From an uncultured virus (IMG/VR IMGVR_UViG_3300018005_000013) (taxonomy: Duplodnaviria; Heunggongvirae; Uroviricota; Caudoviricetes), in IMG/VR virus record IMGVR_UViG_3300018005_000013: DNA of 64,000 bases. The stretch is one strand, 5' to 3'. Under the pieces are notes generated by a model. That model was not told where the DNA came from. It saw nothing but the letters and a program-made list of their open reading frames with translations, and did no database searches. This document shows, in pieces, positions 1 through 64,000 of this stretch; within the stretch, counting starts at the first letter, position 1, and each line of letters opens with the position of its first letter. Position numbers and translations under genes: made by a program.

Positions 1-2874
1 AGCGACGGGGTTCAGGTCCAGCCAGAGCGTGCCCCCGCTCCATGACTCGATCCAGACCGTGATGATGTACCAGCCCGTGATCGGCGGGACGAAGATTCCG
101 CCGTACCCGAGCAGCCACATAGCGGGCTTCTCGTAGAGCAGGACGCCGACGCCCCCGGCGTCGATGGCGGACCACTGGGCGTTCTTGAAGGTGACACCGG
201 GGCCATCATCCAGCGCCGCCCCAGGGAACCAGTCCGCCACGACCTGGGGCGACGTATCCGGCCAAAGGAACGAGGGTAGAGGCGGAATCTCTAGCTTCGG
301 AAGCGCATACTGCTGGTCCGGCGGCACCGGCGGGATCGGCTCAGAGAATCCGGGCTGCCCAGCCGTGACCTCCGCCAGCGTGCCCTTGGTCGTCAGCACC
401 TCCCACTCGGGGGCGTAGGTCCAGGACTGGTCCGTGATGACCATGGGCTTGCGGTTCCACTCCACGCCCCGGTCCGTGTCGTCCTTGAGGACCGTCAGGA
501 GAAGCGCCCGCTGCGGCGCGATGTCGATATAGCGATAGTTCCCCGAAAACTCGACGGCCAGCGCCGGGTAGCGGCTGTTCTTGTGAGCCAGTACATCCCC
601 GACTAGCTCGTCTAGCTGGGCCTGGCCCTGCAGGATGTTGCCCTCGCTCGTTTCGAGCTTGCCGCTGTATGTCGGCGCGTCGCCGGGTGCCTGGGAGAGA
701 TGCTCGGAGTAGGTCCCCGTCTCCGGGCCGCTGTAGGCCACGCCCCCCATCTCGAGGTGCGAGGTGACGTTCAGCGGCGTCTCAGTCAGTTGCAGTGTGT
801 TCAGCCAGTCGCCTTTGAAAATATCGGAGGCGATAGGCAGTGTGCCCGTGGCGTTGTGGATCGCGCCCACGTCGCGCTCCGCCCAGAGCTTGCCCTGCCG
901 GTCCGAGACGAGCGCGCCTTGTAGCCCGGCGGACATGAGGGTGTTGCCCGCATCGTAGAGGCTCTCCCGGCTCGCGTCGAAATACTGGACTGGCCAGTCC
1001 GGCCCGACGAACCCGAAGTCCGTGGTCAGGAGCACGGTCGAGTGCCAGCGGTAGTAGTGGTAAAGGGCTCTCCTTACGTCCATGTCGAGGATTTGGTCCC
1101 AGTCGCTTGGGCTGGCCATGGACTGAACGCTGACAGAGAAGGCCTCGCGGTTCTTCATCATCTCGTGCGGCCCGACCACGTCGAACTCCGTGATGCTCGT
1201 GTGCGCGTTCCAGGTGATGGACCCGGCTTTGACGTAGCCGACGAAGAAGATATTTTCCCGGCCCGGAGCATTGCCGCCAATGGAAATCGGTTTGCCGCCG
1301 TACTCGTCCTCGGACCAGATCACGACCAGCGCGCCGTCCCGGATCGCCTGGCGGTTAGATTCCCCGATGAGGCCTATCTTCGCCTCCCATCCCCCGTTCG
1401 CCCGCGAGCCCGACAGGTCCGAGGAGAAGCTCCACTGCACGAAGGGCGTGTGGATGCCCGCGTTCAGCCGGTCGTAAATGGAAATGTGGCGGTAGGACTG
1501 CTCGTAGACGTTGGTGCCGACGGGATGCACGGTCAGCCGCGTCGTGAAGTGGCCGGTGCCCGTGTAGCTGACGAACCCGGGGATTCGGTCGGTCGAGCCG
1601 GTCGGTGTGCCGCCCTCGAAGGCCCAGTCATATTCAAGGGTGCGCCCAAACAGGTCCTCGGTGTCGCGGGCCGAGTAGTACAGGGTTCCTGTACCGCTGT
1701 CGAGGAAAGCGGCGGCGTGCGTGCCCATGTTGACGAAGGTGCCGAAGGCGCTGTTTTGGCCCATGTACGGGATGTCATAGTCCTTATAAAAGGTCACATT
1801 CATCCCGTTCTGGACGTAGCGTGGGTAGACCGGCCAAATCTCCCAGAAACGCAGGACCGTCAGGTAGAGGTCGTCGGCCCAGGCGATGTGGTTATTCTCC
1901 GCTAGAGACAGGACAGACCCAGAGATTCCGCGGACCCGGACGGTGCCCATGTCGTCCAGCCCTGGGGCTGTCCCGACCGCCAGCGTCATCCCCGACTCCA
2001 CCGAGGTCCCCGCTCCGACGGAGACGTTGTCGAAAGGCACGTCGCGCAGGCCCGCCATGGTCCCGGTCCAGTTCACCTGAGCCCCGAGGGCCGTCGGTGG
2101 CTGGTAGATTGACAAAAAGAGCCTGGACTGGTGCGGGCGCGTCGTTACGATCGCGCGAGCCCCGCCCTCGAGGGCGGGCCGGTCATCGCCCATCCCGACC
2201 GTTCCTAGCGTCACGGAATTGAAAATCCCGTCCAGGCCGCCACCGGACTCGTCCACGGCAGTCGCTCCGAGCAGGTCATTCAGGGGCCAATAGCCGATCA
2301 GGCTGGCCGCTTCGGTCGCCTTGAGCGCGCCCTCGAAGTCGGCGATGATCGTCCCCAGCCCTGCAATCTCCGCGTTCGTCAGCGCCACGCTCCAAAGGGC
2401 GAAATGCTGCAACTGGCCCAGCCAGGCGGCGGACGGACCCGCCAGCGCGCCCAGGTAGGCGGCGTTCAGGGTGCCCGCGCATAGGCCGCCCATGGTCTGC
2501 TCGGCCCCTTGCATCGCGCCGTCGCGCCAGATGCTCACGGTCCCACTAGAGAAGGACCAGCGCAGCACCCAGATCGACCAGCCCGGAATGGAAATCGGGG
2601 TCACGTCGAGGTTGTTCTGGAATCCGCTGCCCTGGTAGACGCCAGAGAACTGGTTGGCCGTGAAGGGCTTGTAGGCCTGGATGTAGTCGCCGCTGTCCAT
2701 GCCGAGATAGAAGCCGATCCGGTTCTGGCCGTCCGTCCAGACGCCCGGGTCGGCGACCTTCTCGGCCAGCAGGGCCGTGCCCTCTCCACCGTTGAACCGA
2801 GCGGCCAGGCCAGGCGAGAATAGGTCAAGGATGGAGGCAGCGCCGTCAAAGAACGGCGCGGTATTGATCGTCAC
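1..2874 (-). CDS. Large tail-tip/baseplate protein with N-terminal LamG/concanavalin-like domain (3' end outside window; absent from ORF track)
   Basis: Hand translation: GTG at 2874 overlaps the upstream TGA; no in-frame stop down to position 1 (at least 958 codons). Begins MTINTAPFFDGAAS and contains LIGYWPLNDLLGATAVDESG. Follows tape measure and Dit-like genes. Confidence 0.8.
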   Translation of the reverse strand, partial: MTINTAPFFDGAASILDLFSPGLAARFNGGEGTALLAEKVADPGVWTDGQNRIGFYLGMDSGDYIQAYKPFTANQFSGVYQGSGFQNNLDVTPISIPGWSIWVLRWSFSSGTVSIWRDGAMQGAEQTMGGLCAGTLNAAYLGALAGPSAAWLGQLQHFALWSVALTNAEIAGLGTIIADFEGALKATEAASLIGYWPLNDLLGATAVDESGGGLDGIFNSVTLGTVGMGDDRPALEGGARAIVTTRPHQSRLFLSIYQPPTALGAQVNWTGTMAGLRDVPFDNVSVGAGTSVESGMTLAVGTAPGLDDMGTVRVRGISGSVLSLAENNHIAWADDLYLTVLRFWEIWPVYPRYVQNGMNVTFYKDYDIPYMGQNSAFGTFVNMGTHAAAFLDSGTGTLYYSARDTEDLFGRTLEYDWAFEGGTPTGSTDRIPGFVSYTGTGHFTTRLTVHPVGTNVYEQSYRHISIYDRLNAGIHTPFVQWSFSSDLSGSRANGGWEAKIGLIGESNRQAIRDGALVVIWSEDEYGGKPISIGGNAPGRENIFFVGYVKAGSITWNAHTSITEFDVVGPHEMMKNREAFSVSVQSMASPSDWDQILDMDVRRALYHYYRWHSTVLLTTDFGFVGPDWPVQYFDASRESLYDAGNTLMSAGLQGALVSDRQGKLWAERDVGAIHNATGTLPIASDIFKGDWLNTLQLTETPLNVTSHLEMGGVAYSGPETGTYSEHLSQAPGDAPTYSGKLETSEGNILQGQAQLDELVGDVLAHKNSRYPALAVEFSGNYRYIDIAPQRALLLTVLKDDTDRGVEWNRKPMVITDQSWTYAPEWEVLTTKGTLAEVTAGQPGFSEPIPPVPPDQQYALPKLEIPPLPSFLWPDTSPQVVADWFPGAALDDGPGVTFKNAQWSAIDAGGVGVLLYEKPAMWLLGYGGIFVPPITGWYIITVWIESWSGGTLWLDLNPVA

Positions 2875-3245
2875 GGGTAAACCCCCATCAGCGGAATCTT
2901 GGAAATGAGGAGAACCACCTTGTTGTAGTAGCCCTCCTCGTAGTGGTCGTACTTAGGCTCCTGCATGACCGCGCCGGAGTAGGTCGCAAAGGCCCAGCCC
3001 CCGGCACCGTAAATGGGCAGGTGCAGGCTGACTGTGCCCGTGCATCCGTACTTCTCGTAGATCGACTGGATGTTTGAAAATCCGGTCCCATCCAGGTAGT
3101 CCCAGTCAAACTCGTACTCGCGGTGCGGCGGAAGGACCGGGTTGCCGAACCCGTCGATGCCCAGTGGCGTGCGTTCCTTCCAGCCGCCCTGGACCGGAGT
3201 GAAAATGTCGATCCCCTGGATTTGGTAGTGGGCTCCGGTCATCAT
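2871..3245 (-). CDS. Distal tail (Dit-like) / minor tail protein
   Basis: 124 aa, directly after tape measure gene; assignment by position only. Confidence 0.55.
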   Translation of the reverse strand: MMTGAHYQIQGIDIFTPVQGGWKERTPLGIDGFGNPVLPPHREYEFDWDYLDGTGFSNIQSIYEKYGCTGTVSLHLPIYGAGGWAFATYSGAVMQEPKYDHYEEGYYNKVVLLISKIPLMGVYP

Positions 3246-49738: not shown

Positions 49739-49748
49739 GGCTCCGCCT

Positions 49749-49850: not shown

Positions 49851-49858
49851 AGCGCCTC

Positions 49859-50530: not shown

Positions 50531-50533
50531 GGC

Positions 50534-50926: not shown

Positions 50927-50951
50927 TGTATCCTCCTTTGCGACTGTCCAA

Positions 50952-50980
50952 AGTATACCGCATGCGGAAGGGTTTGTCAA
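50952..50980 (-). promoter_or_regulatory. Sigma70-type promoter
   Basis: TTGACA-17 bp-TATACT. Confidence 0.85.
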
Positions 50981-51237
50981 GCCCTATATGAAGGGGGCCG
51001 GTGCCGGGCCTCGTGGGCCTCGCGGGCTGCCTGGTAGGCGTTGGGGAAAAGCAGGGTGAAAATGACGAGGGCCGTCAGGGCAGCCAGGACGGGGACGGCC
51101 AGGACAGGGGCAAGGATGATCCACCAGGAGACCTGGATCGCGCCGAGCAGGCGCAGGCCGCCAAAGGCCACCGTCTCAATCAGGCCGACGATCACCTCGC
51201 GGCGGAACAGGATGCCGGGCTGGGCGAACTTGTGCAT
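50977..51237 (-). CDS. Small membrane protein
   Basis: LRLLGAIQVSWWIILAP; resembles 60564..60779. Confidence 0.55.
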   Translation of the reverse strand: MHKFAQPGILFRREVIVGLIETVAFGGLRLLGAIQVSWWIILAPVLAVPVLAALTALVIFTLLFPNAYQAAREAHEARHRPPSYRA

Positions 51238-51449
51238 GCGCCTCCTGAGCAAGTCGGGGCGGCAAGGCAGCGGGCTTTTGCCGATTCAGTCGCATCCCCT
51301 GAAGCCTCACTCCAAACAGATCGCCCGTCGCCTGTGGATTTGCCGCCCCGCCTAGTGGCGCGGCCCGGAGTCGCACCGGGATGGGCCGGGTTATGGGCCC
51401 GGCTGGGGGCTGACCCTCCGCGCTACGTAGTAGTCACTTCCTTGCAACC

Positions 51450-51830
51450 TTATGTTGCTAGGCCTGGCCGAGGTTTGAGGCGGTCCACGAACTCACGGAA
51501 CATCGGAAGCTGCCCTTGCGCCTCGACCTCGAGCAGTTCGACCAGGTGGCCGGTGTTCGCGTCCTTGACCTCCATGACAACCCGCACCAGCCCCGACACC
51601 CTGAGCGCGTAGACCCGCCCGCAGATCGCGGCCAACATAATCGGAGGCCCGTCGAGCGGGCTGGGCGGATCGGAATGTCGCGACCTTGAAAAAAGGACGG
51701 CTAGGTCGGCCCGCGTCATGGGCCCCTGCTTCTCGAGCGCGTAAAGGACGCGCTCCATCTGGTGCAGAGCCTTGCCGCTGGCCACGTGTTCGCGGTACGC
51801 TGTGAGCGAGGTGTACGTTGGTCCGGTCAC
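51450..51830 (-). CDS. Putative winged-helix DNA-binding protein
   Basis: RVLYALEKQGPMTRADLA..AICGRVYALR.SGLV. Confidence 0.65.
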   Translation of the reverse strand: MTGPTYTSLTAYREHVASGKALHQMERVLYALEKQGPMTRADLAVLFSRSRHSDPPSPLDGPPIMLAAICGRVYALRVSGLVRVVMEVKDANTGHLVELLEVEAQGQLPMFREFVDRLKPRPGLAT

Positions 51831-51927
51831 AATACCCCCAACCCAGAGGGCCGGACGTTATGGCGACGCCCGGCCCCCACCCCAGAAGGAGAATACGAGA
51901 GCATTGTATCCCGTCCTTTCCCGGCGG

Positions 51928-52386
51928 TCAAGTGAGCGACCGATTGGCAATCGGCGAATCCGTCGTCGCCTCGGGCGCGCTCGCGGGCGCGGAGGGGATC
52001 GGCTCGGCCACAACCTGCGCGACCCGCTTGGCTTTTGGCACGGGCGGCGGCGCGGGCGCGGCCTGAACCTCGACGGGTTTCTTTGCTTCCCGGTCGGCGA
52101 TCCTCTGCTTGGCGGCCTCGGCGTAGATCGTCCTGGGCTCATCGGGCCCGAGGTACCCCAGAAAATCGTCACTGTCCTCCGCGCTGAAAAGCGTCTCACC
52201 TGGGACATAGCCGATGACCGCAAAGTCCTCGCCCGGGTGCAGCAGCGCCGCCTCGCCAGGCAGGAATTGCACCAAGACCAGGCACGTGACCCGGATCAGA
52301 TCGACCGGCTCCTTCGGCTTTGCTCCGGGTGCGGCGCTGGCAGCGAACAGTTCACCGGCGGGTAGAATGGAAATGGCCTTTGGCAT
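51928..52386 (-). CDS. Hypothetical protein
   Basis: 152 aa, GAGGA RBS. Confidence 0.6.
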   Translation of the reverse strand: MPKAISILPAGELFAASAAPGAKPKEPVDLIRVTCLVLVQFLPGEAALLHPGEDFAVIGYVPGETLFSAEDSDDFLGYLGPDEPRTIYAEAAKQRIADREAKKPVEVQAAPAPPPVPKAKRVAQVVAEPIPSAPASAPEATTDSPIANRSLT

Positions 52387-52397
52387 GATTCCTCACC

Positions 52398-53096
52398 CTA
52401 GCCTAGCCTGGTTGTCCAGGCCGTCTTGTCGAGCAGCGGCTTGGCCCCTTTTGCCTCCACGTCCTCGGGGTGCGCCGCGGCCATGCGCTGGGCCCACGTG
52501 CGCACAATGAGTAGCCAGCGAATCGCCTCCTGCTGCTCAGCCCGCTGGCGCAAGCGGTCCTCAAGTTCAAGGCGTTGGTCCTCGATCCGGTGCTCCATGA
52601 GACGGATTGTCTGGCGCGCCGACCGCAGGTCTCTGCGCCGTCCAGACAGGTCGTGGCGGAGGCGGAACACCGCGCTCGCGGCCAGGCGGTACCGGCGGAG
52701 GACGTGCATCAGGTTGCCGACCGGATTGGTAATCGGCTCGCGGTAGGCCGTGGCGTCGGCGAGAATCTCGGAGACGTGCGCCAGGCAGGCCAGCGCGTCG
52801 GCCTCGCTCAGCCAACCCCAGTCCTTGGGCTTCTGGTTGTACACGCATAGGAGCAGCGCCACCGCTAGATTCCTGGCCACACCCAGCGGCACCGCGCCCA
52901 GCGGCACGCTCACGCCCTCGCCGCTCGAGGGGTCCGGCCCCATTACGCTCATCTTGGCGTCGAAGACCGCGTGCATCTCGACGGCCAGGCCGTAGGGCAT
53001 GCGGACCGTATCCACCACGAATCCGGCGTGTCCGGGCCCGACCACCTTGTACTGGACTACCGTCCGATTGATAATCTCGTCCGGGTCACTGGACAT
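52398..53096 (-). CDS. Hypothetical protein with coiled coil
   Basis: Start MSSDPD by gene tiling. Confidence 0.55.
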   Translation of the reverse strand: MSSDPDEIINRTVVQYKVVGPGHAGFVVDTVRMPYGLAVEMHAVFDAKMSVMGPDPSSGEGVSVPLGAVPLGVARNLAVALLLCVYNQKPKDWGWLSEADALACLAHVSEILADATAYREPITNPVGNLMHVLRRYRLAASAVFRLRHDLSGRRRDLRSARQTIRLMEHRIEDQRLELEDRLRQRAEQQEAIRWLLIVRTWAQRMAAAHPEDVEAKGAKPLLDKTAWTTRLG

Positions 53097-53556
53097 AGGC
53101 CTGCTCCACGCCCGCTGTGCCGGTCGCGCTGAAGGTCGGGTACATCCGGTCGCCGACGTAGCCTCGCGCCGCGCCCAGCAGGCCGCGCTCCGGCTCGGTG
53201 AGGTAGAAGCGGTGCTCCGCCACAACCGCACCGATCACGCCCAGGAGGCCCCTGATGAGGACCTCGCAGGAGTTGGGGGCGCTGGCGTACCGCACCTTCC
53301 AGACCTCTTCGTTCTGGTCGCGCCGCCGCCTGATCCATTCCTTCACGAAGTTCGCCTCCGCCTGGTGGAGGCGCAGGGCCACCTTGGCCTGCTTGCGCCA
53401 ATGGAAATAGGCTTCACCAGTGAGCGGCTGGCCGCTCGGGTCGTGCGGCTCGTCGTTCCCCAGTTGCATCTCGATGTCCGCTGTCTCCTCGCGCAGGTGG
53501 CGGAGGCGATCCTCTGCCTGAGGCAGGTCCTCGGGATGGACGAAGGTGTAGGGCAT
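53086..53556 (-). CDS. Hypothetical protein
   Basis: Start MPYTFV, AGGAG RBS, TAATG overlap. Confidence 0.6.
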   Translation of the reverse strand: MPYTFVHPEDLPQAEDRLRHLREETADIEMQLGNDEPHDPSGQPLTGEAYFHWRKQAKVALRLHQAEANFVKEWIRRRRDQNEEVWKVRYASAPNSCEVLIRGLLGVIGAVVAEHRFYLTEPERGLLGAARGYVGDRMYPTFSATGTAGVEQAYVQ

Positions 53557-53810
53557 TAGTTGACTCCTGTGGCCAGGCCGACCACGGCCCCGATTGCCGT
53601 CCCCATGATCCAGGCCACCACATGCGGCGCGTCGAAGTGCAGAACGGTCATGGCGATAGACAGGACGCTTGAGACGCCGATGAGCGCCGCAATGAAAAAG
53701 AGGCGGGCGTAACCGCGCAGGTCGCGCCGGGCGTTGGCCGCCTCGCGGGTGTATACGACGGCCAGCGCCTCCCAAAGGATGCAGAGAATCAGGACGTAGG
53801 GCCAGGACAA
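53556..53810 (-). CDS. Small three-TM membrane protein
   Basis: 84 aa, almost entirely hydrophobic. Confidence 0.6.
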   Translation of the reverse strand: MSWPYVLILCILWEALAVVYTREAANARRDLRGYARLFFIAALIGVSSVLSIAMTVLHFDAPHVVAWIMGTAIGAVVGLATGVN

Positions 53811-53990
53811 CTCAAAGCTCCCAGGAGAGACCCAGGAGGCGGAGGGGCCCGATGCCGATGGAAAAATCGCCCCAGCCCTCGTCTAGGTCGAGGATCAAAC
53901 CCACGAGCCAGTTGTCCGCCTCCCAGGTCAAGACATTCAGGTCCACGCGCCAGTCACCAGGCCAGAACGCGAAGTGAAACATTTTGCCTC

Positions 53991-54674
53991 CTAGATGTGC
54001 GCCCAGTCGGGCAAGGCAACCAAACGCCCGCAGGTCTTGAGCGGGTGAGCCAGCAGGGGTTGCGTCCCAGCCAGCCGTCGGTAGAAGCGCAGTTTTTGCG
54101 CGACGGTCTCCGGCCCCCAGCCGTAGTGGAGCAGGCAGTAGGGCGGGTCGATCCGGGCGCAGTCCTTGGGCGCTGGCACATTCCCGAAGCAAAGCTGGTG
54201 CTCGTTCCCGTCATAGGGTTCGACCGGCCAGTTCGCCCTCCATGCCCACAGGCTCCGCTGTCGGGAAACATCCGGGAACCATAGAGAGTCACCCCACAGA
54301 GTCAGGCGCGGCACAAGCAGGACCGGCTGCTCTAGGTTGGAAATTACGATCCGGGCGTCCACGCGCAGACTAAAGTTCGGCACGCAGTCGATGTCCTCGC
54401 TCACGATCCAGTCCGCATCCTCGTCCCTGGCCCAGCCAAGCAGCGCCGCAAGGACCTCGCCGGGCGGGCTGAACCACCCTTGCGATCCGGGCAGATGGAC
54501 GCGCAGGTTGCAGACCGGCATGGCGACGTTCTCGTAGCACATGCCCCGCGCCACCGTCAGGTCCTCGCACCCGCAGTCGGCAATGATAATCTTGTCGGCC
54601 CAGGCGTAGCACCGGCAGAAGCGGTCGATCCGCGCCTCTTCGTTGCGCGCGGCCGCCAGGACGACGATCTTCAT
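53991..54674 (-). CDS. Glycosyltransferase family 2-like (early region)
   Basis: ARNEEARIDRF..ADKIIIADCGCED.T, EDIDC, LLHYG. Confidence 0.8.
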   Translation of the reverse strand: MKIVVLAAARNEEARIDRFCRCYAWADKIIIADCGCEDLTVARGMCYENVAMPVCNLRVHLPGSQGWFSPPGEVLAALLGWARDEDADWIVSEDIDCVPNFSLRVDARIVISNLEQPVLLVPRLTLWGDSLWFPDVSRQRSLWAWRANWPVEPYDGNEHQLCFGNVPAPKDCARIDPPYCLLHYGWGPETVAQKLRFYRRLAGTQPLLAHPLKTCGRLVALPDWAHI

Positions 54675-55252
54675 GCCTTGGCCTCCATCTCGTGCAGATA
54701 CGCCGCGGAAATCATCACCGACATGCAGGCCATACACCAGCCGAAGGCGCGCAGGTGGCCCTCCACCTCGGCGGTCGACTCGAGCCCCTGGAGGCGCATC
54801 GTCATCGACAGGGCGGACATGACCATGTCGGCAACGGCATCGTCGGCCCGCTCGCGTCCGCCAAACTTCCGGTTGAGCAGTTCCCGCCCGGCCATGAGAT
54901 AGTCGGATGCTTGCATGTAGTTTAGGTCCGGCACGGGCAGGTCCAGCGGCGGCTCCGGCGGCCTGTCCGGCGCACGGTCGCCGGGCACTCTCTCCATCTC
55001 CCGGATATACCCCAGGGTGATCCCGATGGCCGTGGCGGCGCTAAATTGCAGCAGGTCCCGCATCTTCTCCTCGACCTGGTCGGGCGAGCCCTTCTCGTGC
55101 CAAATAGCCATGGCGATGGCCACGGAGGCTAGGTCCGTGACGGCCCGCGCCCCCTCCGAATCCCCGCCGAACTTAGCCACGAGTACCTCGCGCCCGGGCC
55201 GCAGGTAGTCGGCGGCCTGCGAAATGGTCAGGTTGGGAATGGGTAGGCTCAC
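54671..55252 (-). CDS. Hypothetical protein made of two tandem ~90-aa repeats
   Basis: LPIPNLTISQAADYLRPGREVLVAKFGG and LPVPDLNYMQASDYLMAGRELLNRKFGG. Confidence 0.7.
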   Translation of the reverse strand: MSLPIPNLTISQAADYLRPGREVLVAKFGGDSEGARAVTDLASVAIAMAIWHEKGSPDQVEEKMRDLLQFSAATAIGITLGYIREMERVPGDRAPDRPPEPPLDLPVPDLNYMQASDYLMAGRELLNRKFGGRERADDAVADMVMSALSMTMRLQGLESTAEVEGHLRAFGWCMACMSVMISAAYLHEMEAKA

Positions 55253-55460
55253 TCGGCGGCTCCTAGCCTGGGCGCAAGCACCCGGATGCCGTACTCGATG
55301 ATCTCGCGGTTGCAGATGCGCACAGCCTCGCGGTAGGCCTCGAGTTCGCTCCTGCAAATCTTGGAATCGCGGCCAGGCCTCCAGGGGCCGTCGCCCATGG
55401 CGATCCAGACGTACCAGCGGTGATCCCCGCGCTGCTGAATACATACGCGGTTGTCCGCGC

Positions 55461-55733
55461 TCACGGCGTTGGCGTCGCATCGGGCTCGGGGATGATCGTC
55501 CCGCCCGTCATGGACAGGATTGGCCCCTCGGGCCCGTTCATATCCCAGGAGCGGTAGCAGTTGATCCCGCGGGTGCCGCCAAATCCGCTCGTGTCCATCA
55601 CGCAGTACCCGGTGATCTGGTACCGGCTGCCATCTGGCCCGACGACAAGGTAGTGCTGCGGCGTGTAGGTCGGCGCGCAGGCGGCCAGCCCAAGAATGAA
55701 AATCGCGGCGGCGAGCAAAAGTCGCAGTTTCAT
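55461..55733 (-). CDS. Lipoprotein
   Basis: MKLRLLLAAAIFILGLAAC signal with lipobox LAAC. Confidence 0.75.
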   Translation of the reverse strand: MKLRLLLAAAIFILGLAACAPTYTPQHYLVVGPDGSRYQITGYCVMDTSGFGGTRGINCYRSWDMNGPEGPILSMTGGTIIPEPDATPTP

Positions 55734-56287
55734 GGCATCACTCCAGCAAGCATCTCAGAAGCAACCGGGTAGAAGTTCCAGCAGTCCACGCCCACGTCGA
55801 CTCGCATCCCCCGCATCTTCCCGGGCGGAAGGTTGGCGTCGCCGCTGGCCTCGCACACGCCGACGGTCCCGTGGCTGTGGCCGTGCAGGTGCCAGGCCCC
55901 GTAGTGGCTCTGTTCCCAGGAGAGCATGGGGTAGTGGCAAAGCACAATCTTGCCCATGTTCGGGTCTGGGACCCGCAGGATCGGGGGCGCGATTACCACC
56001 GGATGGCCGTTGACAGTGTGCATGGCGCGCCCGATCCAGTGCCGGTCGTGGCCGCCAGGAATGAGGATCACATGGCCGTTCAGGCGGCGGAAGTAGGCCT
56101 CCGCGGCGTCCGGCCCGCTCAGCGTGAAGTCGCCCAGGCAGTACACGGTGTCCTTGTCGCTCACGCGGTCGTTCCAGCGATTGATAATGGCCTCGTCCAT
56201 CTCCTCGAGCGAGGCGAAGGGGCGCGTCACGTACTGTATGATCCGACTGTGGCCCAGGTGCTCGTCGGCGGTATAAAAGACGCTCAT
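55730..56287 (-). CDS. Calcineurin-like metallophosphoesterase
   Basis: ADEHLGH, LGDF, GGHD, CHYP, HGHSH. Confidence 0.92.
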   Translation of the reverse strand: MSVFYTADEHLGHSRIIQYVTRPFASLEEMDEAIINRWNDRVSDKDTVYCLGDFTLSGPDAAEAYFRRLNGHVILIPGGHDRHWIGRAMHTVNGHPVVIAPPILRVPDPNMGKIVLCHYPMLSWEQSHYGAWHLHGHSHGTVGVCEASGDANLPPGKMRGMRVDVGVDCWNFYPVASEMLAGVMP

Positions 56288-57327
56288 AGGAGCCTCACGG
56301 GCGCGGCGGCGATCCGCTCGCGGGCCAATTCGAGGTACTCGGCCTTGAGGTCCAACCCGACGAAGGCGCGCCCGAGCTTCTGGGCCACGACCCCCGTTGT
56401 CCCGCTGCCACAGAACGGGTCGAGCACTAGCGCGGGCACGGCCTCGCCGCAAGAGCACTGGCAGGTTGGCTGCCAGCCGACGGTCCGCACCTCGTCTACC
56501 ATGCCCTCGGGCCCGGAGACGTGGCCGTCCGTCCGGCCCGTCTTCTCTCGCGTCGCCCGGCGTTGGGCCTCTACATCGCGGGTCGGGTGCTTGGTCCGCT
56601 CGAGGACGCGCTCCCACGGGCTGCCACAGCGCGGGCAGTTCCCGCGGTCGCTCGTGCCCGCCAGGATACAGGGTTCGACGAGCTTCTCCGGGAATGTGGC
56701 GAAGTGAGCGCCATGGTAGGGCTGCGTGACGATGGCCCAGACATCCCGTAGGTTACGCCCGGTCGCGGTAATCCGCGTGTTCGCCTCGCCGCGCAGACTC
56801 TCCGCGTCGTTCCTCGAGGCATCGACCCTGCCGCGAGGCCCGCGGGTGTAGCCTTTGGCTGCTCGAGCAAGCATGTCCTCCGTGTTGGGTTCCTTCACGG
56901 CTTCGGCATCGTAGAAGTATCGGTCGGACTTTGAAAAAAGGAAGACCTGCTCATGCGCCCGGGTGGGGCGGTCCGTCACGGGCTCTGGCATGCCATTCGG
57001 CTTGGCCCAGATGATTTCGGCTCGCAGATGCCACCCATAGCTCTGTAGGGCGAAGGCCACGCGCCAGGGCATGCCCATCAATTCCTTGTCGGCGTAGCAG
57101 TCGCCCAGATTGAGCCAGAGTGTGCCATCCGGGCGCAGGGCTCGGCGCGCCTGGCGGAAGGCCAGGACGAGGTCCTCGGCGTACTCCCCAGCCGTTTCCT
57201 CGAGGCCGATTCCCTTTTCGCCCAGGCCGTAGTCGCGCAAGTTCCAAAATGGCGGCGAAGTGATAATAGCCTGAACCATATTATCGGCGATAGGAATAGC
57301 GCGGGCGTCGGCGAGGATCAGGCTCAT
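56284..57327 (-). CDS. DNA amino-methyltransferase (N4-C/N6-A, beta class)
   Basis: TSPPF catalytic motif, IIWAKPN, HFATFP, LDPFCGSGTT; no adjacent restriction gene seen. Confidence 0.94.
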   Translation of the reverse strand: MSLILADARAIPIADNMVQAIITSPPFWNLRDYGLGEKGIGLEETAGEYAEDLVLAFRQARRALRPDGTLWLNLGDCYADKELMGMPWRVAFALQSYGWHLRAEIIWAKPNGMPEPVTDRPTRAHEQVFLFSKSDRYFYDAEAVKEPNTEDMLARAAKGYTRGPRGRVDASRNDAESLRGEANTRITATGRNLRDVWAIVTQPYHGAHFATFPEKLVEPCILAGTSDRGNCPRCGSPWERVLERTKHPTRDVEAQRRATREKTGRTDGHVSGPEGMVDEVRTVGWQPTCQCSCGEAVPALVLDPFCGSGTTGVVAQKLGRAFVGLDLKAEYLELARERIAAAPVRLL

Positions 57328-57746
57328 GCCATCGCCGCATTTGCGAGGACATCTCGCTCGAGCCGCTCGGGGTCGTCGCACAGGGACAGATTGGGCTCGA
57401 CCTCGCAAATCCAGGTCAGGCAGCCGTCGGGCCCGCACTCGCCGCCGAGTTCCGGCTTGGGTCCGGCTTGTCGGTACTCCCTGCCGCACATGCAGCAGCG
57501 GCTCAGGCCCTTGGCCGTGCTCTCCCGCAGGTCGCGCAGGTTGCGAGCGACGCGCAGGACGCCGCCGAATGGAAAACAGGTCGCGTTCCAGAGGATAAAG
57601 CCGCAGTCATCGTCGGACAGGTCGGGCTTGCGGAGGATGCGGCGAACGAGGTCGTAGGTGGTCAGGCCAGAGGGCGCTGGCTTGGCTGCGCGCTCCCGCA
57701 GCAGTTGGGCCTTGTGCTCGTCGGAGAGGTCGGGGGCGTCGCTCAT
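57324..57746 (-). CDS. Hypothetical Cys-rich protein
   Basis: 140 aa, ATGA-coupled to the methyltransferase gene. Confidence 0.6.
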   Translation of the reverse strand: MSDAPDLSDEHKAQLLRERAAKPAPSGLTTYDLVRRILRKPDLSDDDCGFILWNATCFPFGGVLRVARNLRDLRESTAKGLSRCCMCGREYRQAGPKPELGGECGPDGCLTWICEVEPNLSLCDDPERLERDVLANAAMA

Positions 57747-57824
57747 GGTCCACCTTTACGTCAAGCAATCGGGCTGTGGCTTTCCACAACCCGCCTTGTG
57801 GCTACTGGGCTTGCCACACGGCCA

Positions 57825-57860
57825 ATTATACCATGTCGGGCCCTGGCCGACAGGTGTCGG
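57825..57860 (-). promoter_or_regulatory. Extended -10 promoter with repeated CCGACA sites
   Basis: TGGTATAAT at 57825..57833; CCGACA-CC-TGTCGG palindrome at 57847..57860 plus a third half-site at 57834..57839. Confidence 0.65.
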
Positions 57861-58087
57861 AGGCCTTCGCTTATTCCAGTCCGCGCCCCGAAAGTGGGGC
57901 AAGGCCGCCGCTATTCTACTTTGGGGCCCGAAAGTGGAATAGGCTCGTATCAGATTCTAGTATCACAACCGGAACTTGATCCGAAACGCGCAGCAGGGCA
58001 GCGGGCAGACCCACAGGCAACGGGCGACGTGCTGGTCCCAGTAGGCTCCGACCCACAGGTCGTACCAGGCGAAGCGGAAGGTGACGC

Positions 58088-58384
58088 TCAGGATGTGGGG
58101 CATGAGCGCGCTCGCACGAGCTTGAACATAGCATCGACGTCGGGCTCGTCCCGGCACCACAGTTTCAGGAGCGGGTGATCGGGCGAGACCTTGGCTGCCA
58201 GCGCCTCGGGTCCCTCCTCGCGGTAGAGCCGATAGGCGTCCACTTCCTGCGGGAAACCGGCAGCCAGGCGGCTCAGGTTCTCCGCGTCCGCCGACCGGAT
58301 CGTGGCGAAGAGGTTGTGGAAAAAGTACCCGCTTCGCCCGTACATATTCTCGAGGAACCGGTCGTACCCGTTCGTCTCAGGCAT
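58088..58384 (-). CDS. Hypothetical protein
   Basis: 98 aa, GAGGGG RBS. Confidence 0.6.
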   Translation of the reverse strand: MPETNGYDRFLENMYGRSGYFFHNLFATIRSADAENLSRLAAGFPQEVDAYRLYREEGPEALAAKVSPDHPLLKLWCRDEPDVDAMFKLVRARSCPTS

Positions 58385-58400
58385 GGCTCACCCCTCTCAT

Positions 58401-58673
58401 TCAGATCGTGGGACTTAGCGGGCGACGCTCCCAAAGCTCCCGCTCGATGGCCGTGGCGACATCCCCTTTGGCCCTATCGGTTTGGCACAGGTCGCACAGC
58501 GGATAGAAGATGAATCTCTGCTTGCCCTGGGGAGCACCCCACTCGTGCTTGTCGGTGCACATGACGCCAAAGGATCGCGTCGGCCTGTCGCAAAGGATGC
58601 ACGGGGCCTCGATCTCGCCGTTGGTCCGCGCCCGCATCGCCTCGTGCAGTTGCGCAAGTTGATCCTCCGTCAC
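58401..58673 (-). CDS. Putative zinc-finger protein
   Basis: CILC..CDLC. Confidence 0.6.
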   Translation of the reverse strand: MTEDQLAQLHEAMRARTNGEIEAPCILCDRPTRSFGVMCTDKHEWGAPQGKQRFIFYPLCDLCQTDRAKGDVATAIERELWERRPLSPTI

Positions 58674-58676
58674 CCC

Positions 58677-59111
58677 TCACTCTCCATGGTTCAGGACGAG
58701 CACGGCGCGCAGGAAAAGGATGAACGCCCGCGCATCTGCCAGACTGGGCCTGGGCCGGAAGGGCGTGCCCCGGCACCACTTCTGGCGCGTGACCTTGAAA
58801 ATCGGGCAGCGGTGGCACGGGTTCTTGGCACCCCTTTGCCAGTAGGTGTAGCAGAGCGGGCAGTTCCGCCCTGCCTGAACGACGACCTTGTCCTCCTTGA
58901 GCAAGCGCAGGATCACGCGCCACTTACGGATCGACTCGCGGATGGCCGGGTTAGGGATACGGGGCGGCCACATGCCCGCCACCTGGATCGTGTAGCTACC
59001 ATGTAGCCACGGCTGGCCCGCGGGGGCGTAGTGATAGATCGGAATGAAAATCAGGCGCTCGGCGCGCGATCGGCGGGTGGGTCGGTCCGAGCCGAAGGTC
59101 CTGGGGCTCAT
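58677..59111 (-). CDS. Basic Cys-rich hypothetical protein
   Basis: CPLC..CHRCP; ATGA overlap start. Confidence 0.5.
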   Translation of the reverse strand: MSPRTFGSDRPTRRSRAERLIFIPIYHYAPAGQPWLHGSYTIQVAGMWPPRIPNPAIRESIRKWRVILRLLKEDKVVVQAGRNCPLCYTYWQRGAKNPCHRCPIFKVTRQKWCRGTPFRPRPSLADARAFILFLRAVLVLNHGE

Positions 59112-59749
59112 GCCAACTCCCCCGGAGACTGCATCTGGGGCTCCGGTTCGTGGTCGGGCGTGCAATGCAGGCAGTAGTCCGCCAACAGGTTGCCCTGAAG
59201 ACCAGAGGCGGGCTCCTGGGCCGCGGCATAGAAGTCCGCAATCGGACGGTACTGCTCGCATTTCGCGCACCACCGGTCTAGCCGCTGGGGCGGGTACTGC
59301 CCGCCGACCCGCAGGATTCCGCCCGGCCCTTTGAAAATGAGGCCCGGCTCCCAATTCCCTGCGACCACTGTCTCGATGAGGTCGTACTGGACGAAGGACG
59401 CGCCAACACTGTAGCTCGAGGTGGTCGGAACGCCCATGATGACATAGCGGCCCTGGGGCAGGACCCGGCGCAGCAGTTTCTTGGCCGCGTCCCGGCTCAA
59501 GGGCTGGCCGTCCGCGTCCGCGGCCAGCTTGGGGACGAGCAGCCGGACGGGCATGGCACCGGCCTTGCAAATCTTGCTCAGCCGCTCGCGGGACCTGGCC
59601 TTGTATTCTAGGCTCACGAGAGGGCGACAGGCGGGGCAGAACTTGGAGCCGCCGTGCGGCAGGTAGAGCGCCTGGCAGCGTTGGCAGTGGACCCTGACCG
59701 TGCACCGGCGCACGGCTCTCGCCTCGAGGGGCGGGGCCGTAGTCACCAT
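59108..59749 (-). CDS. Protein with two zinc-ribbon-like motifs
   Basis: CQRC..CPAC and CAKC..CLHC. Confidence 0.6.
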   Translation of the reverse strand: MVTTAPPLEARAVRRCTVRVHCQRCQALYLPHGGSKFCPACRPLVSLEYKARSRERLSKICKAGAMPVRLLVPKLAADADGQPLSRDAAKKLLRRVLPQGRYVIMGVPTTSSYSVGASFVQYDLIETVVAGNWEPGLIFKGPGGILRVGGQYPPQRLDRWCAKCEQYRPIADFYAAAQEPASGLQGNLLADYCLHCTPDHEPEPQMQSPGELA

Positions 59750-60192
59750 TCGCTTCCGGCCAGCTTGTGCAGGTAGTCCATGGCCTCCGCCAGAGTCGGG
59801 AAGACGATGTCGGCGGCCTCGAGTACGAAGGCGTGCCAGTGCACGCTCGGGTTCTCCATCACGACGATTGTGTGCTTGCGCAGCATGTGCGCCCAGGCCA
59901 ACTCCATCATGCAGCCAATGCTCACGCCCTTGGCCTCGCGCAGGTCCACGAGGACCACGTCCGCCAGGCCCACCATCCAGGCGTCGCGCTCCACAATGGC
60001 GTGGTTGGTAGAGACGGGGTTGCCGTAGCCGTGCGCCTTGAACTCCGTCTCCGTGCGCAGGTAGCCCTTGCCGGTCATCGGGTGCAGTATCTCGAAGTCC
60101 GCGCCGAGCATCCTGACGATGCCGTCGATGTAGGACACGACCTGCTCCCCCGTGAGCCCCGAAATCGGATGCGCCGTGTACAGTTTGAGCAC
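59743..60192 (-). CDS. Nucleoside 2-deoxyribosyltransferase / nucleotide N-glycosidase-like protein
   Basis: LYTAHPI..RD....ADVVLV..SIGCMMELAWA. Confidence 0.82.
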   Translation of the reverse strand: MLKLYTAHPISGLTGEQVVSYIDGIVRMLGADFEILHPMTGKGYLRTETEFKAHGYGNPVSTNHAIVERDAWMVGLADVVLVDLREAKGVSIGCMMELAWAHMLRKHTIVVMENPSVHWHAFVLEAADIVFPTLAEAMDYLHKLAGSEW

Positions 60193-60563
60193 GTTTGCCT
60201 CCCTATCAGGCCGATCCCAGGACCACGCCAAGAGCCCACGCGACGGCCCCGACAATGGCCACGGTGAAAAGCAGTGTGAGCACGATCACCAGGCAGCCGC
60301 GGCCATTATCGTCCGCCGCCATGGAAATGGGGCCGAACAGCATGAGCGCGGCGACGAGTCCCAGGACGATCCAGGCAACGGTGTGGGCAATCACCGCTTC
60401 CTCTCCTTCCGGCGCTTGTGGGCACATCGGAAACACTCGCGCTCCCGTATCTCGCCGCCTACGATCACGACCCCGTGCGGGCGCACAACCGGCTTGCACC
60501 CGCGCCCGGGGCAGCCCTTGCGCGTGTGGTAAATGGCCACGTTGGTCAGCATGTTGGCCAGCT

Positions 60564-60779
60564 TCATTCGTCGCGCTCCCGGAAAAAGAACGTCCCAAGA
60601 ATAAGTAGGCCCAGCAACCATAAGCAGACCAGCGCGGCGGGCAGCCAGATGGGAGTGAAAATCCAGAACCAGGACCAGTGCACGATGCCGAGTACCTTGG
60701 CTAGGACCAGAGCAAGCTGGATGCAGAACCAGCATCCGCCCAGCGGGCCGGAGTCGATGACAGCCTCGTCGGGCATCAT
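60564..60779 (-). CDS. Small membrane protein
   Basis: LAKVLGIVHWSWFWIFTPIW. Confidence 0.65.
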   Translation of the reverse strand: MMPDEAVIDSGPLGGCWFCIQLALVLAKVLGIVHWSWFWIFTPIWLPAALVCLWLLGLLILGTFFFRERDE

Positions 60780-61393
60780 CCCTGCCTCGCTTGCTCAGCC
60801 GCGCCCATCAGGTCCTTCGGGGCCAACTGCGCTCCGGTCTTCGGGTCTTGCCACCACGGCGGCGGCCCGTGGAGCGGGAAGATGTCCGCGCCCTTGGAGA
60901 CGATATTGAGGACCTCAAGCAGGCCGGTGGCGAGCTTGTCGTCTACGTAGGTGTGAGTCCGCGCAAGCTCGTGGAGCGTCAGCCGGGCCGACTCAAGCCG
61001 GGCGTCGAGGTTGACCACCTCGTCCTCGAGCGCCGCGTTGTTCGCCAGGGCCTTGTGCTCCCGCTCCTGCGCCTCGGTCAGTCGCAGGGCCAGCGTGCCC
61101 ATCCAGCGTTCCCTGCCCTCGAGTTCCAGGTGCGCCTTGCCGATGCGATCCAGAAGCGCCTTGTTGTCGGCCATGAGCGCCTCGGCTCGGCCTTTCCAGT
61201 CGTTGCCGCGCTCCATCGCCGCGGTGAAGTTCGCCCTGAGAACCTCCATCCCCGCCGCGGCTCGCTCGAGGGCGGCGACCCTCTCGCGCATGGCGGACCC
61301 CATCCACTGGCCAATGTGGTCGGAGAGTTTCCGGCTACCGGGGTCGGCCAGCATTGCGTCCAAGTCGGGTCGAGTGTCCGTGTCCGATCCCAT
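60776..61393 (-). CDS. Coiled-coil hypothetical protein
   Basis: 205 aa, GGGAGG RBS. Confidence 0.65.
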   Translation of the reverse strand: MGSDTDTRPDLDAMLADPGSRKLSDHIGQWMGSAMRERVAALERAAAGMEVLRANFTAAMERGNDWKGRAEALMADNKALLDRIGKAHLELEGRERWMGTLALRLTEAQEREHKALANNAALEDEVVNLDARLESARLTLHELARTHTYVDDKLATGLLEVLNIVSKGADIFPLHGPPPWWQDPKTGAQLAPKDLMGAAEQARQG

Positions 61394-61403
61394 GCTGCCT
61401 CCC

Positions 61404-61634
61404 TTAGTCGCCGCCGCAGGTGCTCGCGGGCAGCGGTATGCTCGGCCTCATGGCCCACCAGGTTTGCGCGGCGTCACGCAGCAGCCTTGCACAGTCGGGG
61501 CACACGTCCAGGTTGTCCGTGGTCCAGCCGTCCTGAAGGTACCAGAGAATGTCGCGGTCCGTGAGTTCCATCGCGTCCGGTTCCCCCTTGGGGTAGCCCT
61601 TGCCGCAGCGGTCGCAGACCTTTTGGGTTGCCAT
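61404..61634 (-). CDS. Small zinc-finger protein
   Basis: CDRC..CPDC. Confidence 0.65.
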   Translation of the reverse strand: MATQKVCDRCGKGYPKGEPDAMELTDRDILWYLQDGWTTDNLDVCPDCARLLRDAAQTWWAMRPSIPLPASTCGGD

Positions 61635-61644
61635 GGCCGTCTGC

Positions 61645-62034
61645 CTACTCGGGCCTGGCCTGGCCGCCGAGGCGGTAGTAGGCCACGTCGCTCACGTCTA
61701 GGTCATACATGTGCACCGGCGGCTGCGTGGCGTAGAGCATCGCGTCGCTTTCGAGCATCTCGGCGGCGCGTCGGTGCTCCGTCATCTTCCCGTAGGCCTC
61801 CTGCATCCGGTTGTACGCCGCGGGATCGCCGTAGTTGACCACCAGGTCCGTGCGCTTGCCGCCTGTCACCTCGAACTCACGAAACTCGACCCGGGCCGTG
61901 TCCTTGAGACGGCTGACGGCCCCGGCGTACTCGCCCTGATAGAAGGCGATCCGATCCCGGTGGTACTGGGCCTCCGCCTTGGCAGCAGCGGCGATCTGGC
62001 CAGCGGTGAATCGAAAGACGTGCTTGTCCCTCAT
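61645..62034 (-). CDS. Hypothetical protein
   Basis: Start MRDKHV, GGGAGG RBS, ATGA overlap. Confidence 0.65.
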   Translation of the reverse strand: MRDKHVFRFTAGQIAAAAKAEAQYHRDRIAFYQGEYAGAVSRLKDTARVEFREFEVTGGKRTDLVVNYGDPAAYNRMQEAYGKMTEHRRAAEMLESDAMLYATQPPVHMYDLDVSDVAYYRLGGQARPE

Positions 62035-62259
62035 TTCCCCTCCCTGTCTTTGACAACCTGGTAGGTCGTGCGCGGGTCTTCTTCCTCGGGCCGCAAGAAT
62101 CGGATGGCGGGCAGCATAGCAGCGTAGAGGCGGGCCAGCCGCCAGATTGTGAGCGGTGCCCTCCACCACGGCCCCATCCGGTCCAGGCGCACCAGGAAGG
62201 TCGGCCTGGGCGGCAGGGCCGCGTCCGTTCCGTCCCCAAGGTTGAAAATGGGCATCAGG

Positions 62260-62658
62260 TCAACTCCCCTTGGCTGGCCAAGTTCCTTGCTGGCATCGGT
62301 CCGCGCCCGCGAACTTGCCCCAGACCACGTGCTTGAACTCGATCCGCGTCACCCTCGCCTCGGGGCCGCACCGGTTTGCCCTGCCGAACATGGCCACGAA
62401 GCCCCCCGGCGTCATCCCAGGGAATCCCTCGCGGATGCACTCATCGCGGTCAATCCCCGCCAGCGTGACTTGCCGGGCGCTCACGACCTCAATCTCGCCG
62501 AGGATGCGCTGGCGGTCGCCCTTCTTGAGACCCATGCCCTTCTCGACGGCGATGAGGTGGTCGCCCGGCTTGAGTAATTTCCACCCGAGCCGCCGGGTCA
62601 CGTCCTTCGACCCGTCCAGGAATTGCCGCGTGGTCATGCTAAAGGCGATGCGTCGCAT
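62260..62658 (-). CDS. ASCH (PUA-like) domain protein
   Basis: IAFS...FLDGSKDVTRR..LKPGD..REGF..VTRIEF. Confidence 0.82.
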   Translation of the reverse strand: MRRIAFSMTTRQFLDGSKDVTRRLGWKLLKPGDHLIAVEKGMGLKKGDRQRILGEIEVVSARQVTLAGIDRDECIREGFPGMTPGGFVAMFGRANRCGPEARVTRIEFKHVVWGKFAGADRCQQGTWPAKGS

Positions 62659-63571: not shown

Positions 63572-63878
63572 TCGTATGCGGCTCCTCGCCGCCCGGCAAG
63601 TGGATCGAGTCCCAGACCATCAGTGCCAGGTTGGCGATGTCTACAGCCTCTTTCCGCATGATGTCCTCGCGGCCATAGGCTGCTCCCGCCGCGAGTTCGC
63701 CCACGTGGCGGATAAGAGTCCAGGCGAGGAACACGGGCGACCAAATCCGCCAGTCGCCGCGGTCGTCCTTGTGCGCCTCTATGGCGGCGATCATCTCGTG
63801 CTCGAAGGGGGCCAGGCTACGGGCCACCCAATTCTCTGGAAGTTCCCGATAGGCCGGTTTCGCTGTTTCAGGCATCAC
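63540..63878 (-). CDS. MazG-like (all-alpha NTP pyrophosphohydrolase fold) protein
   Basis: HVGELA..RKEAVDIANLALMV (ExxD). Confidence 0.6.
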   Translation of the reverse strand: MMPETAKPAYRELPENWVARSLAPFEHEMIAAIEAHKDDRGDWRIWSPVFLAWTLIRHVGELAAGAAYGREDIMRKEAVDIANLALMVWDSIHLPGGEEPHTSEGASAQPPL

Positions 63879-64000
63879 GCCTCCTCTTGAATGATAATCA
63901 TTCGCGCCTCGAATGAGGCAGCGGTATGACCGCCTGCCCCAATTATCCCACCGCCTTCGTTCCCGGTTCCTCCGGGTCCCAGCCCTCGAGCTTGATCCAG

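Follow-up and report, generated by a model that had tools for sequence, protein, structure and literature searches.

An asymmetric word on one strand of the DNA of an uncultured tailed phage and two of its relatives: density, spacing and possible function

The DNA stretch analysed here, in the following called the window, comprises 64 kb (65.5% G+C) of an uncultured virus (IMG/VR record IMGVR_UViG_3300018005_000013) and is from a tailed phage. Throughout its length, the + strand carries the word TGRHAAT, which is ATTDYCA on the gene (−) strand. It was found that this word is selected as a nucleotide sequence, not for the codons or peptides it spells, and that it is the strand of DNA, rather than transcript or protein, which carries the signal. 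We are highly confident that the word is a mark on the DNA molecule, that is, an asymmetric site of about 10 bases present on one strand approximately once per 0.6 kb and evenly spread. As to its function, a programmed interruption of one strand, in the form of a nick or a start, is tentatively ranked first.

For comparison, relatives were found by their terminase among viral contigs. Two full records were obtained, G1 (G001; 96,396 bp, estimated completeness 79%) and G2 (G002; 102,736 bp, estimated completeness 92%), with terminases 80% and 56% identical to that of the window, respectively.

Abundance and distribution of the word in the window

Counting on both strands revealed 108 copies of TGRHAAT on the + strand and 8 on the − strand, the sum of 116 comparing with 15.98 ± 3.52 copies (largest value 23) in 100 dinucleotide-preserving shuffles. 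Separated by spelling, the + and − copies number 33 and 2 for TGGAAAT, 24 and 3 for TGAAAAT, 19 and 0 for TGATAAT, 16 and 1 for TGGTAAT, 11 and 2 for TGGCAAT, and 5 and 0 for TGACAAT. An earlier, sequence-only reading of the window had reported TGGAAAT at least 32 times on the + strand, overlooking the copy at 9455, and its tallies of the other variants were nearly exact; the single reverse TGGAAAT it had noticed, at about 44597, turned out to be one of two, the other starting at 62577.

The + array spans 816..63898, with copies starting at positions 816, 1281, 1479, 2220, 2589, 2900, 3075, 3200, 3475, 4149, 4480, 6108, 6356, 6850, 7014, 7627, 7939, 8074, 9255, 9455, 9951, 10344, 11541, 11984, 12166, 12802, 13125, 13485, 13760, 13952, 15058, 15438, 15745, 16198, 16465, 17174, 17549, 18050, 18195, 19061, 19234, 20167, 20445, 20756, 21278, 21407, 22984, 23308, 23420, 24709, 25344, 25608, 26172, 26601, 28692, 30250, 30406, 30652, 31419, 31675, 32310, 32499, 33446, 33765, 33927, 35228, 35746, 36026, 37228, 37502, 38227, 39404, 39792, 40119, 40275, 40533, 40877, 41904, 42427, 43207, 43422, 43674, 43948, 44358, 45291, 46590, 48450, 48760, 50488, 50881, 51057, 51945, 52368, 52727, 53069, 53402, 54338, 54584, 55697, 56182, 57261, 58796, 59045, 59332, 60322, 60656, 62243 and 63892. 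The preceding base is T in 54 and A in 36 of these copies, the base two positions before is A in 57, and the following base is C in 65, which matches the earlier description of the flanks (T or AA before, C after). Read on the gene strand, the extended consensus is G-ATT-N-Y-CA-W-T, with ATT-N-Y-CA as the core rule; GATTNYCAWT is present 36 times in forward orientation, where 5.5 copies are expected, and not once in reverse.

The eight reverse copies (− strand, 14512..62583; + strand starts at 14512, 14794, 22809, 27969, 35842, 44597, 55992 and 62577) are of chance-level number, 5.9 ± 2.2 being expected. The extended form GATTNYCAW was found in none of them, and distances of reverse copies to the nearest forward copy do not depart from chance. 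With 8 reverse against 108 forward copies, the strand polarity claimed in the sequence-only reading is borne out.

Six copies of TGRGAAT (ATTCYCA on the gene strand) were located on the + strand at 21564, 33282, 35342, 46809, 50281 and 55234 (21564..55240). Their membership of the window's array is doubtful, and ATTCCCA (4 versus 2.0 expected) and ATTCTCA (2 versus 1.4 expected) are not enriched there. The word-poorest stretch (26608..30256), with one copy (28692) in 3.6 kb, spans the genes 26891-28669 and 28666-29850, neither of which has an orthologue in G1 or G2. Beside the copies, neither hairpins nor a special fold were detected, the folding energies of the flanks being equal to those of controls on both strands.

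Selection on the nucleotide sequence

Genes were called by open reading frame (ORF) analysis based on G+C content at third codon positions (GC3), together with a crude caller of our own, resulting in 76 genes in the window, all of which are on the − strand and which contain 98 of the copies. Synonymous shuffling within these genes left 24.7 ± 4.1 copies (maximum 35 in 300 shuffles), and recoding of the same proteins with the codon usage from outside the copies left 16.9 ± 3.8. For an earlier set of 60 genes with 85 observed copies, the corresponding values were 19.5 ± 3.7 upon synonymous shuffling and 10.9 ± 3.2 upon codon permutation. A first-order codon-pair model predicted 25.5 copies in frame 0, where 75 were observed. 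The sequence-only reading had proposed selection on nucleotides and named the synonymous shuffle and codon- and dicodon-level controls as its tests; the excess persisted in all of them.

The word is written in all three frames, as had been claimed before, and each frame is enriched (75/14/9 copies in frames 0/1/2 versus 20.4/4.8/0.2 after shuffling); in G1, frame 2 holds 23 copies versus 0.7 expected. The codon contexts cited earlier, namely ISI, DFQ and VFP, were all found. Before DYC followed by A, isoleucine is encoded by ATT in 75 of 93 cases (81%), compared to 24-36% in three partial or null contexts. When k-mers were compared with synonymous shuffles in an unbiased way, ATTTCCA, TTTCCA and TTTTCA came out on top. 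Frame 0 is the cheapest spelling, consisting of one rare Ile codon, one preferred NYC codon and then a codon starting with A.

A functionless by-product of codon usage, of dipeptides or of a strand-specific mutation bias (for example, wobble C-to-T) would agree with the dominance of frame 0 (75/98) and with the T residues at the wobble positions of ATT and AWT, which in this frame are synonymous C-to-T variants of preferred codons. This explanation is nevertheless very improbable, given that the excess survives synonymous shuffling, codon permutation and the codon-pair model, that frames 1 and 2 are enriched too, that the word is also enriched antisense to genes and that its copies are spaced more evenly than by chance. 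In addition, G1 differs at 1 to 7 of the seven positions at 38 of 65 aligned window copies, with two or more differences in 34. At more than 100 places, the phage pays for the word with rare codons and altered amino acids, so its benefit must be real.

Two other gene-strand words also exceeded the synonymous-shuffle expectation in the window, namely CTCGAG (76 versus 33.0) and GGAACTC (14 versus 2.6); these are unexplained.

Occurrence in relatives and strand polarity

Inspection of relatives, as suggested in the sequence-only reading, revealed the same word, one-stranded, in both G1 and G2. GATTDYCA was counted in a forward to reverse ratio of 102:1 in G1 and 68:8 in G2, with 0-1 copies of a reversed-pattern control, and ATTDYCA in a ratio of 144:6 and 105:21, respectively. 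The preferred spelling varies. In the window, the order is ATTTCCA > ATTTTCA > ATTATCA, whereas G1 prefers ATTATCA (49) and ATTGTCA (36) and additionally has ATTCTCA (21 versus 9.8 expected), and G2 prefers ATTTCCA (44). The flanks are alike in all three, with G at −1 in 60-65%, A or T at +7 in 84-89% and T at +8 in about 50% of copies. These preferences, common to three lineages, speak for one kind of reader.

Both relatives contain blocks of genes on the opposite strand, at about 4.1-7 and 10.3-21.3 kb in G1 and about 1-17.5 and 91.8-98.2 kb in G2. Pfam- or PHROG-backed genes in these blocks code for a nucleotidyltransferase, a GIY-YIG-type homing endonuclease, LuxR-type regulators, two DNA methyltransferases and a DnaC-like loader. 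Within the minus-strand genes of G1, the word was found in genome + orientation 15 times versus 5.0 ± 1.9 expected (maximum 11 in 300 shuffles) and in gene sense not at all. In those of G2, 17 copies are in genome orientation (at 15 distinct places, two copies falling in gene overlaps) versus 8.2 ± 2.1 (maximum 14), and 2 are in gene sense. In opposite-strand genes the word encodes Leu-Glu-Ile, Met-Glu-Ile, Phe-Asp-Asn and similar peptides. DNA outside the gene calls is also polar (9:1, 14:0 and 13:4), and no polarity switch was found along G1 (96 kb) or G2 (102 kb).

We conclude that the polarity follows the genome and not transcription in G1 and G2. With the large terminase gene of the window (45958-47556, −; 532 aa; Pfam Terminase_6N and 6C; phrog_38, 2e-84) as orientation reference, the strand leading from terminase through portal (43360-45804, −) and head to tail genes shows the word as 5'-GATTNYCAWT-3'.

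Because the strand is kept inside minus-strand genes, a transcript signal, be it for antitermination or processivity, an RNase, translation or a type III CRISPR anti-tag, is hardly credible any more: the word is always on the mRNA-sense strand in the window alone, but is missing from the mRNA of the minus-strand genes of G1 and G2 (15 versus 0; 17 versus 2), the copies are without special fold, and an anti-tag, by our reasoning, guards the adjoining protospacer only, so that one copy per 600 bases would cover few. Selection at the DNA or RNA level, as originally proposed, thus stands for DNA and falls for RNA, and with the latter go the options of antitermination or processivity on the transcript and of a CRISPR anti-tag. 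The proposed oriented binding site keeps its orientation, with options of the Chi/KOPS-like (KOPS, FtsK orienting polar sequences), packaging or ejection, and modification or cutting types remaining. None of the ChaB, Rho-N, wHTH and terminase proteins pointed out in the sequence-only reading could be tied to the word.

Outside the window, G1 and G2, no comparable AT-rich polar word was found in the wider terminase clade (73 loci), and no GenBank phage gave a megablast match to window positions 20000-32000. A contig with a terminase 56% identical to that of the window (L121:1-17714, 48% G+C) carries TGGAAAW, the window's word in opposite orientation relative to the genes, 29 times on the gene strand versus 15.2 ± 2.7 after shuffling, with 4 copies of the complement. 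It was rejected as a reversed version of the same system, the excess being no larger than that of the top chance words in 7-mer scans. In a more distant terminase relative (L173), short tandem CGAGGGG runs are located at 4108-4135, 11941-11954 and 13799-13819, and GAGGGG occurs 27 times forward and 0 times in reverse in 20 kb; this is a polar repeat of a different kind.

Spacing, conservation and turnover of copies

Random placement would leave 16.7 of the 107 gaps between neighbouring copies in the window shorter than 100 bp; none is that short, the minimum being 112 bp. G1 has 3 such gaps among 143 (19.9 expected), and in G2 no two of the 60 copies of its enriched spelling, ATTTYCA, are closer than 186 bp. 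For the gaps in the window, G1 and G2, coefficients of variation of 0.79, 0.88 and 0.78, respectively, were obtained, as compared to simulated values of 0.98-0.99 ± 0.07-0.09; except in G1, the largest gaps tend to be shorter than with random placement. The spacing check proposed earlier showed copies more even than random in all three sequences and neighbours within 100 bp avoided in the window and G1, but not in the broad pattern of G2. According to our own arithmetic, about 17 unselected background copies should place about five within 100 bp of another copy. As background copies alone would predict these close neighbours, the avoidance looks active and not like a mere lack of benefit.

To follow individual copies, 34 pairs of window and G1 orthologues with a mean amino-acid identity of 57% were aligned over 38.5 kb. 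A G1 copy is present at the same alignment column for 19 of 65 window copies (chance 0.12), and a G2 copy for 6 of 74. At the 19 places shared with G1, identity is 95% over −1..+9 versus 66% in the flanks, and the wobble identity at conserved residues of all aligned orthologues is 55%. At the other window copies, G1 differs at 1 to 7 of the seven positions or has gaps opposite. This partial conservation of position, together with the differing G1 sequence, implies that copies are gained and lost while density is kept. Window genes common to a relative have a copy density of 1.99/kb, compared to 0.90/kb for those without a shared counterpart (binomial p 0.008); G1 and G2 show this tendency less strongly and without significance.

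Possible function of the word

Over-represented words of a single orientation are among the few clues to processes spanning an entire chromosome, and Chi and phage nick motifs are the two kinds described in phages. No published paper on the present word was found in a literature search that left supplementary files aside. Among the cases known to us, the word of the window's clade is the densest and most evenly spaced.

If the word marks sites of programmed one-strand interruption, which we hold to be less likely than not and still the foremost possibility, a strand-specific enzyme would act on every copy and break the continuity of one strand there. The interruption would be a programmed nick, or else a fixed start or stop point of discontinuous strand synthesis. 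A single orientation would arise from the enzyme acting during a one-way DNA transaction, either packaging or rolling-circle copying, and the lack of neighbours within 100 bp would reflect the harm of two nearby cuts in the same strand, which would free a short piece and leave a gap. The ranking is based on four observations. The active avoidance of close neighbours fits harmful close cuts, reverse copies are depleted in G1 (7 versus 22.1 ± 3.8 expected), and the AT-richness and partial degeneracy of the word are traits of the known nick words but of no Chi known to us. Finally, its presence in phages at 43-57% protein identity and its absence from sister clades would suit a phage-encoded reader.

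T5 and phiKMV-like phages, cited in PMC3384331, are reportedly the older cases of nick-associated words. The closest likeness is provided by phages of the tf/Rembedalsseter group, where a partly degenerate word of about 9 bases lies on one strand, mostly in coding sequence, and is enriched and family-conserved (PMC11780129, PMC3517423). For Rembedalsseter, 13 nicks at WACTRTGAC are described, all on one strand, with 88% of the motif copies in coding sequence, an enrichment over 0.7 expected copies and conservation in 61 phages (PMC11780129). That system differs in having 13 copies in 45 kb, placed one-sidedly, with nicks demonstrated by native sequencing (PMC11780129). The window's word has 108 copies (G1 144, G2 105), which are spread evenly over the 64 kb and avoid distances below 100 bp. 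It shares with nick motifs the restriction to one strand regardless of gene direction as well as enrichment and conservation in relatives, but not the low copy number of 3-15.

Several points weigh against programmed interruption. No nick or gap was seen in the data, which are assembled contigs and as such cannot show molecule ends. With 108-170 copies per genome, the word is about ten times more frequent than known nick words (3-15), and we know of no benefit of so many cuts. Reverse copies are undepleted in the window (10 versus 8.7) and in G2 (25 versus 26.2), and the broad pattern of G2 shows no close-copy avoidance, with 11 of 104 gaps below 100 bp versus 10.1 expected. In the tf group, nick motifs cluster toward one side of the genome, whereas density is even here. 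No conserved nuclease could be tied to the word; neither G1 nor G2 has an orthologue of the gene at 11035-11553 (−), which encodes an HNH endonuclease fused to an AP2 DNA-binding domain, probably a homing endonuclease. The version with fixed start points is weakened by the lack of a primase or polymerase among the proteins scanned with Pfam (74 of G1, 59 of G2) and PHROG (26 of G1, 55 of G1/G2/window), G1 and G2 being incomplete; the phages appear to rely on the host replisome. A phage-encoded primase, as expected with primase sites, is not among the scanned proteins of G1 and G2, although with an estimated completeness of 79% and 92% the gene might have been missed.

Another of the nearest models of programmed interruption, the word GCCCA of the haloarchaeal pleomorphic virus HRPV-3, with 27 interruption sites in the genome (PMC3384331), follows switches of transcription in its polarity, comes with short single-stranded stretches and may adjoin another copy. 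The window's word differs, its polarity ignoring transcription and its close neighbours being avoided.

More broadly, an undescribed strand code extending over the whole genome may stand behind the word, an idea we consider conceivable at rather low odds. A phage-encoded, sequence- and strand-specific enzyme would then act about every 600 bases of a 100-kb genome, with no two sites within about 100 bp. If so, one virion strand would be a chain of short segments, or it would bear dense one-way loading or stop points. Such a chromosome organisation would be new for tailed phages, and it would provide a new asymmetric specificity, for nicking or for docking.

A Chi-like role, ranked second, is likewise possible yet rather unlikely. 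Here, a helicase-nuclease of the RecBCD/AddAB/AdnAB kind, from the host or the phage, would enter at a free DNA end left by packaging, rolling-circle copying or injection, and recognition of the word on the unwound strand with the 3' end would halt degradation and start recombination. An asymmetric word of 7-10 bases, enriched, located within genes and kept in a single orientation genome-wide whatever the gene direction, agrees with it. Dense, even, one-way coverage would suit a headful phage with ends falling anywhere. The window's terminase is of the T4-like Terminase_6 type, which is often linked to headful packaging, and the early regions of G1 and G2 are lambdoid-looking, with Cro/CI-type HTH proteins, a DnaC-like loader and an Erf-like annealing protein (6.9e-30 in G1, 1.2e-15 in G2), next to a single-stranded DNA-binding protein (SSB) in G1; the region in question is outside the window. 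On the other hand, the word is AT-rich with a free central base, while the Chi sequences known to us are G/C-rich. Neither the avoidance of distances below 100 bp nor the loss of reverse copies in G1 is explained by a Chi-like role. In a complete chromosome labelled Acidobacteriaceae (G003), not known as host, 20 samples of 20 kb gave 109 forward and 131 reverse copies; polarity of the word was rejected for it, as no replichore pattern emerged.

Chi-abundant lambdoids (E. coli LLS, Pseudomonas MD8 and about 60 others) have a short, asymmetric, strongly over-represented word with nearly all copies in one orientation on the terminase-to-head strand, in genes of any direction, at a density of one per 1.3-1.9 kb (PMC12315714). 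In LLS, 20 of the 23 Chi are actively oriented and the density is one per 1.86 kb; MD8 has 32 in one orientation and 0 in the other, Chi being its most frequent octamer (PMC12315714). With the word on the top strand and the terminase to the left, the geometry of LLS and MD8 is that of the window's group. However, these phages use the host's Chi, both reported sequences being G/C-rich, concentrate it near the right end and mostly lack a recombination (Rec) module (PMC12315714), whereas the present word is AT-rich, free at its central base and evenly spread, and an Erf-like protein exists in G1 and G2, along with the SSB of G1.

It is unlikely that the word serves as a polar docking or orienting site, either as a KOPS-like signal for a packaging or other motor or as a site for a protein that coats DNA head-to-tail. 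One orientation without a switch along 96 and 102 kb and one extended consensus in three lineages are consistent with such sites, and a bulky bound complex would explain the even spacing and the exclusion zone of about 100 bp. However, signals of the KOPS or SRS (SpoIIIE recognition sequence) type switch at origin and terminus, which the word does not in G1 and G2, and Pfam and PHROG scans of window, G1 and G2 proteins yielded no FtsK/SpoIIIE-type protein. To our knowledge, no terminase translocates under guidance of a sequence.

Even less probable is an asymmetric target of DNA modification, for example one-strand methylation by a phage N6/N4 methyltransferase as a self mark. PF01555 methyltransferases are available for it, one in the window (56284-57327; Pfam 1.4e-44), at least two in G1 and at least three in G2, and a large sugar-nucleotide/glycosyltransferase cluster is kept in all three. 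Modification, though, would not account for the enrichment, the single orientation or the even spacing. The scanned window, G1 and G2 proteins include no recognisable hydroxymethylase or other pathway of base modification, and virion glycosylation would explain the sugar cluster equally well.

Two further systems resemble the word in part. The stoperators of Cluster A mycobacteriophages (L5 gp71 sites) are asymmetric and present in many genome-spread copies that follow the direction of transcription in each genome arm; the word ignores this direction in G1 and G2. Phage T7 is said to carry its EcoP15I sites in one orientation as an escape from type III restriction. One-strand copies are common to both, but the T7 case needs only the loss of one orientation, while the kept orientation of the window's word is enriched 4- to 6-fold and the other is depleted only in G1.

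As a nick signal, the word would form the first dense array of its kind in a tailed phage; as a Chi, it would be the first AT-rich example in a GC-rich host; as a docking site, it would represent a new polar system. Each of these outcomes, if true, would point to an enzyme with a new asymmetric specificity.

Source DNA and gene content

The phage DNA was found only in peat and wetland metagenomes, in 12 runs, all as assembled contigs and with no RNA run listed. Between these contigs and the window, 51 single-letter differences exist; none of the 40 listed falls in a copy, which with about 0.5 expected is uninformative. Of the listed ends of contig pieces, 7 of 63 are within 35 bp of a copy versus about 8 expected, although contig ends cannot show the ends of molecules. 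As to the host, no prophage relative of the terminase was found among the genome contigs searched. The DegT-like gene has relatives of only 43-51% identity, scattered over many phyla. A LytR-type protein of G2 gave only matches of 31-39% identity, in 46 of 301 genomes of one phylum, and the IS110-type transposase of G2 had no match in 301 genomes of another. This IS110-family transposase gene lies inside the phage contig (L016:16632-17543, +; Pfam Transposase_20; phrog_4285, 3.2e-44).

Besides terminase and portal, the window has a probable major capsid gene and tail genes. Between head and tail genes, the sugar-nucleotide/glycosyltransferase cluster (11558-22503, −) comprises genes for a nucleotidyltransferase, epimerase/dehydratases, an RmlD-like reductase, a DegT-type aminotransferase and GT1, GT2 and GT4 transferases, most of them with orthologues in G1 and G2; it likely serves virion glycosylation. 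The GDP-mannose 4,6-dehydratase gene of G1 (L008:1775-4057, +; 760 aa) shows its enzyme matches in two stretches around a LAGLIDADG domain, an arrangement that suggests an intein, while the G2 orthologue is uninterrupted (333 aa).

Following the portal gene, the window codes for a protein of 973 aa (39430-42351, −) with a LigT/2'-5' RNA ligase-like phosphoesterase domain of borderline score. The counterparts of this region in the relatives are larger still, up to an ORF of 2906 aa in G2, and these large proteins are probably injected multi-domain virion proteins. The terminase ORF of G2 (L006:8705-11275, +; 856 aa) is N-terminally longer by about 430 aa than that of the window. Two tRNA genes, tRNA-Gly(GCC) and tRNA-Met(CAT), are present in the window at 48790-48859 (−) and 51355-51424 (−). 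G1 carries an 85-nt tRNA-Ile(GAT) gene (L001:2102-2186, +), the product of which reads ATC and ATT and might offset the extra ATT codons imposed by the word.

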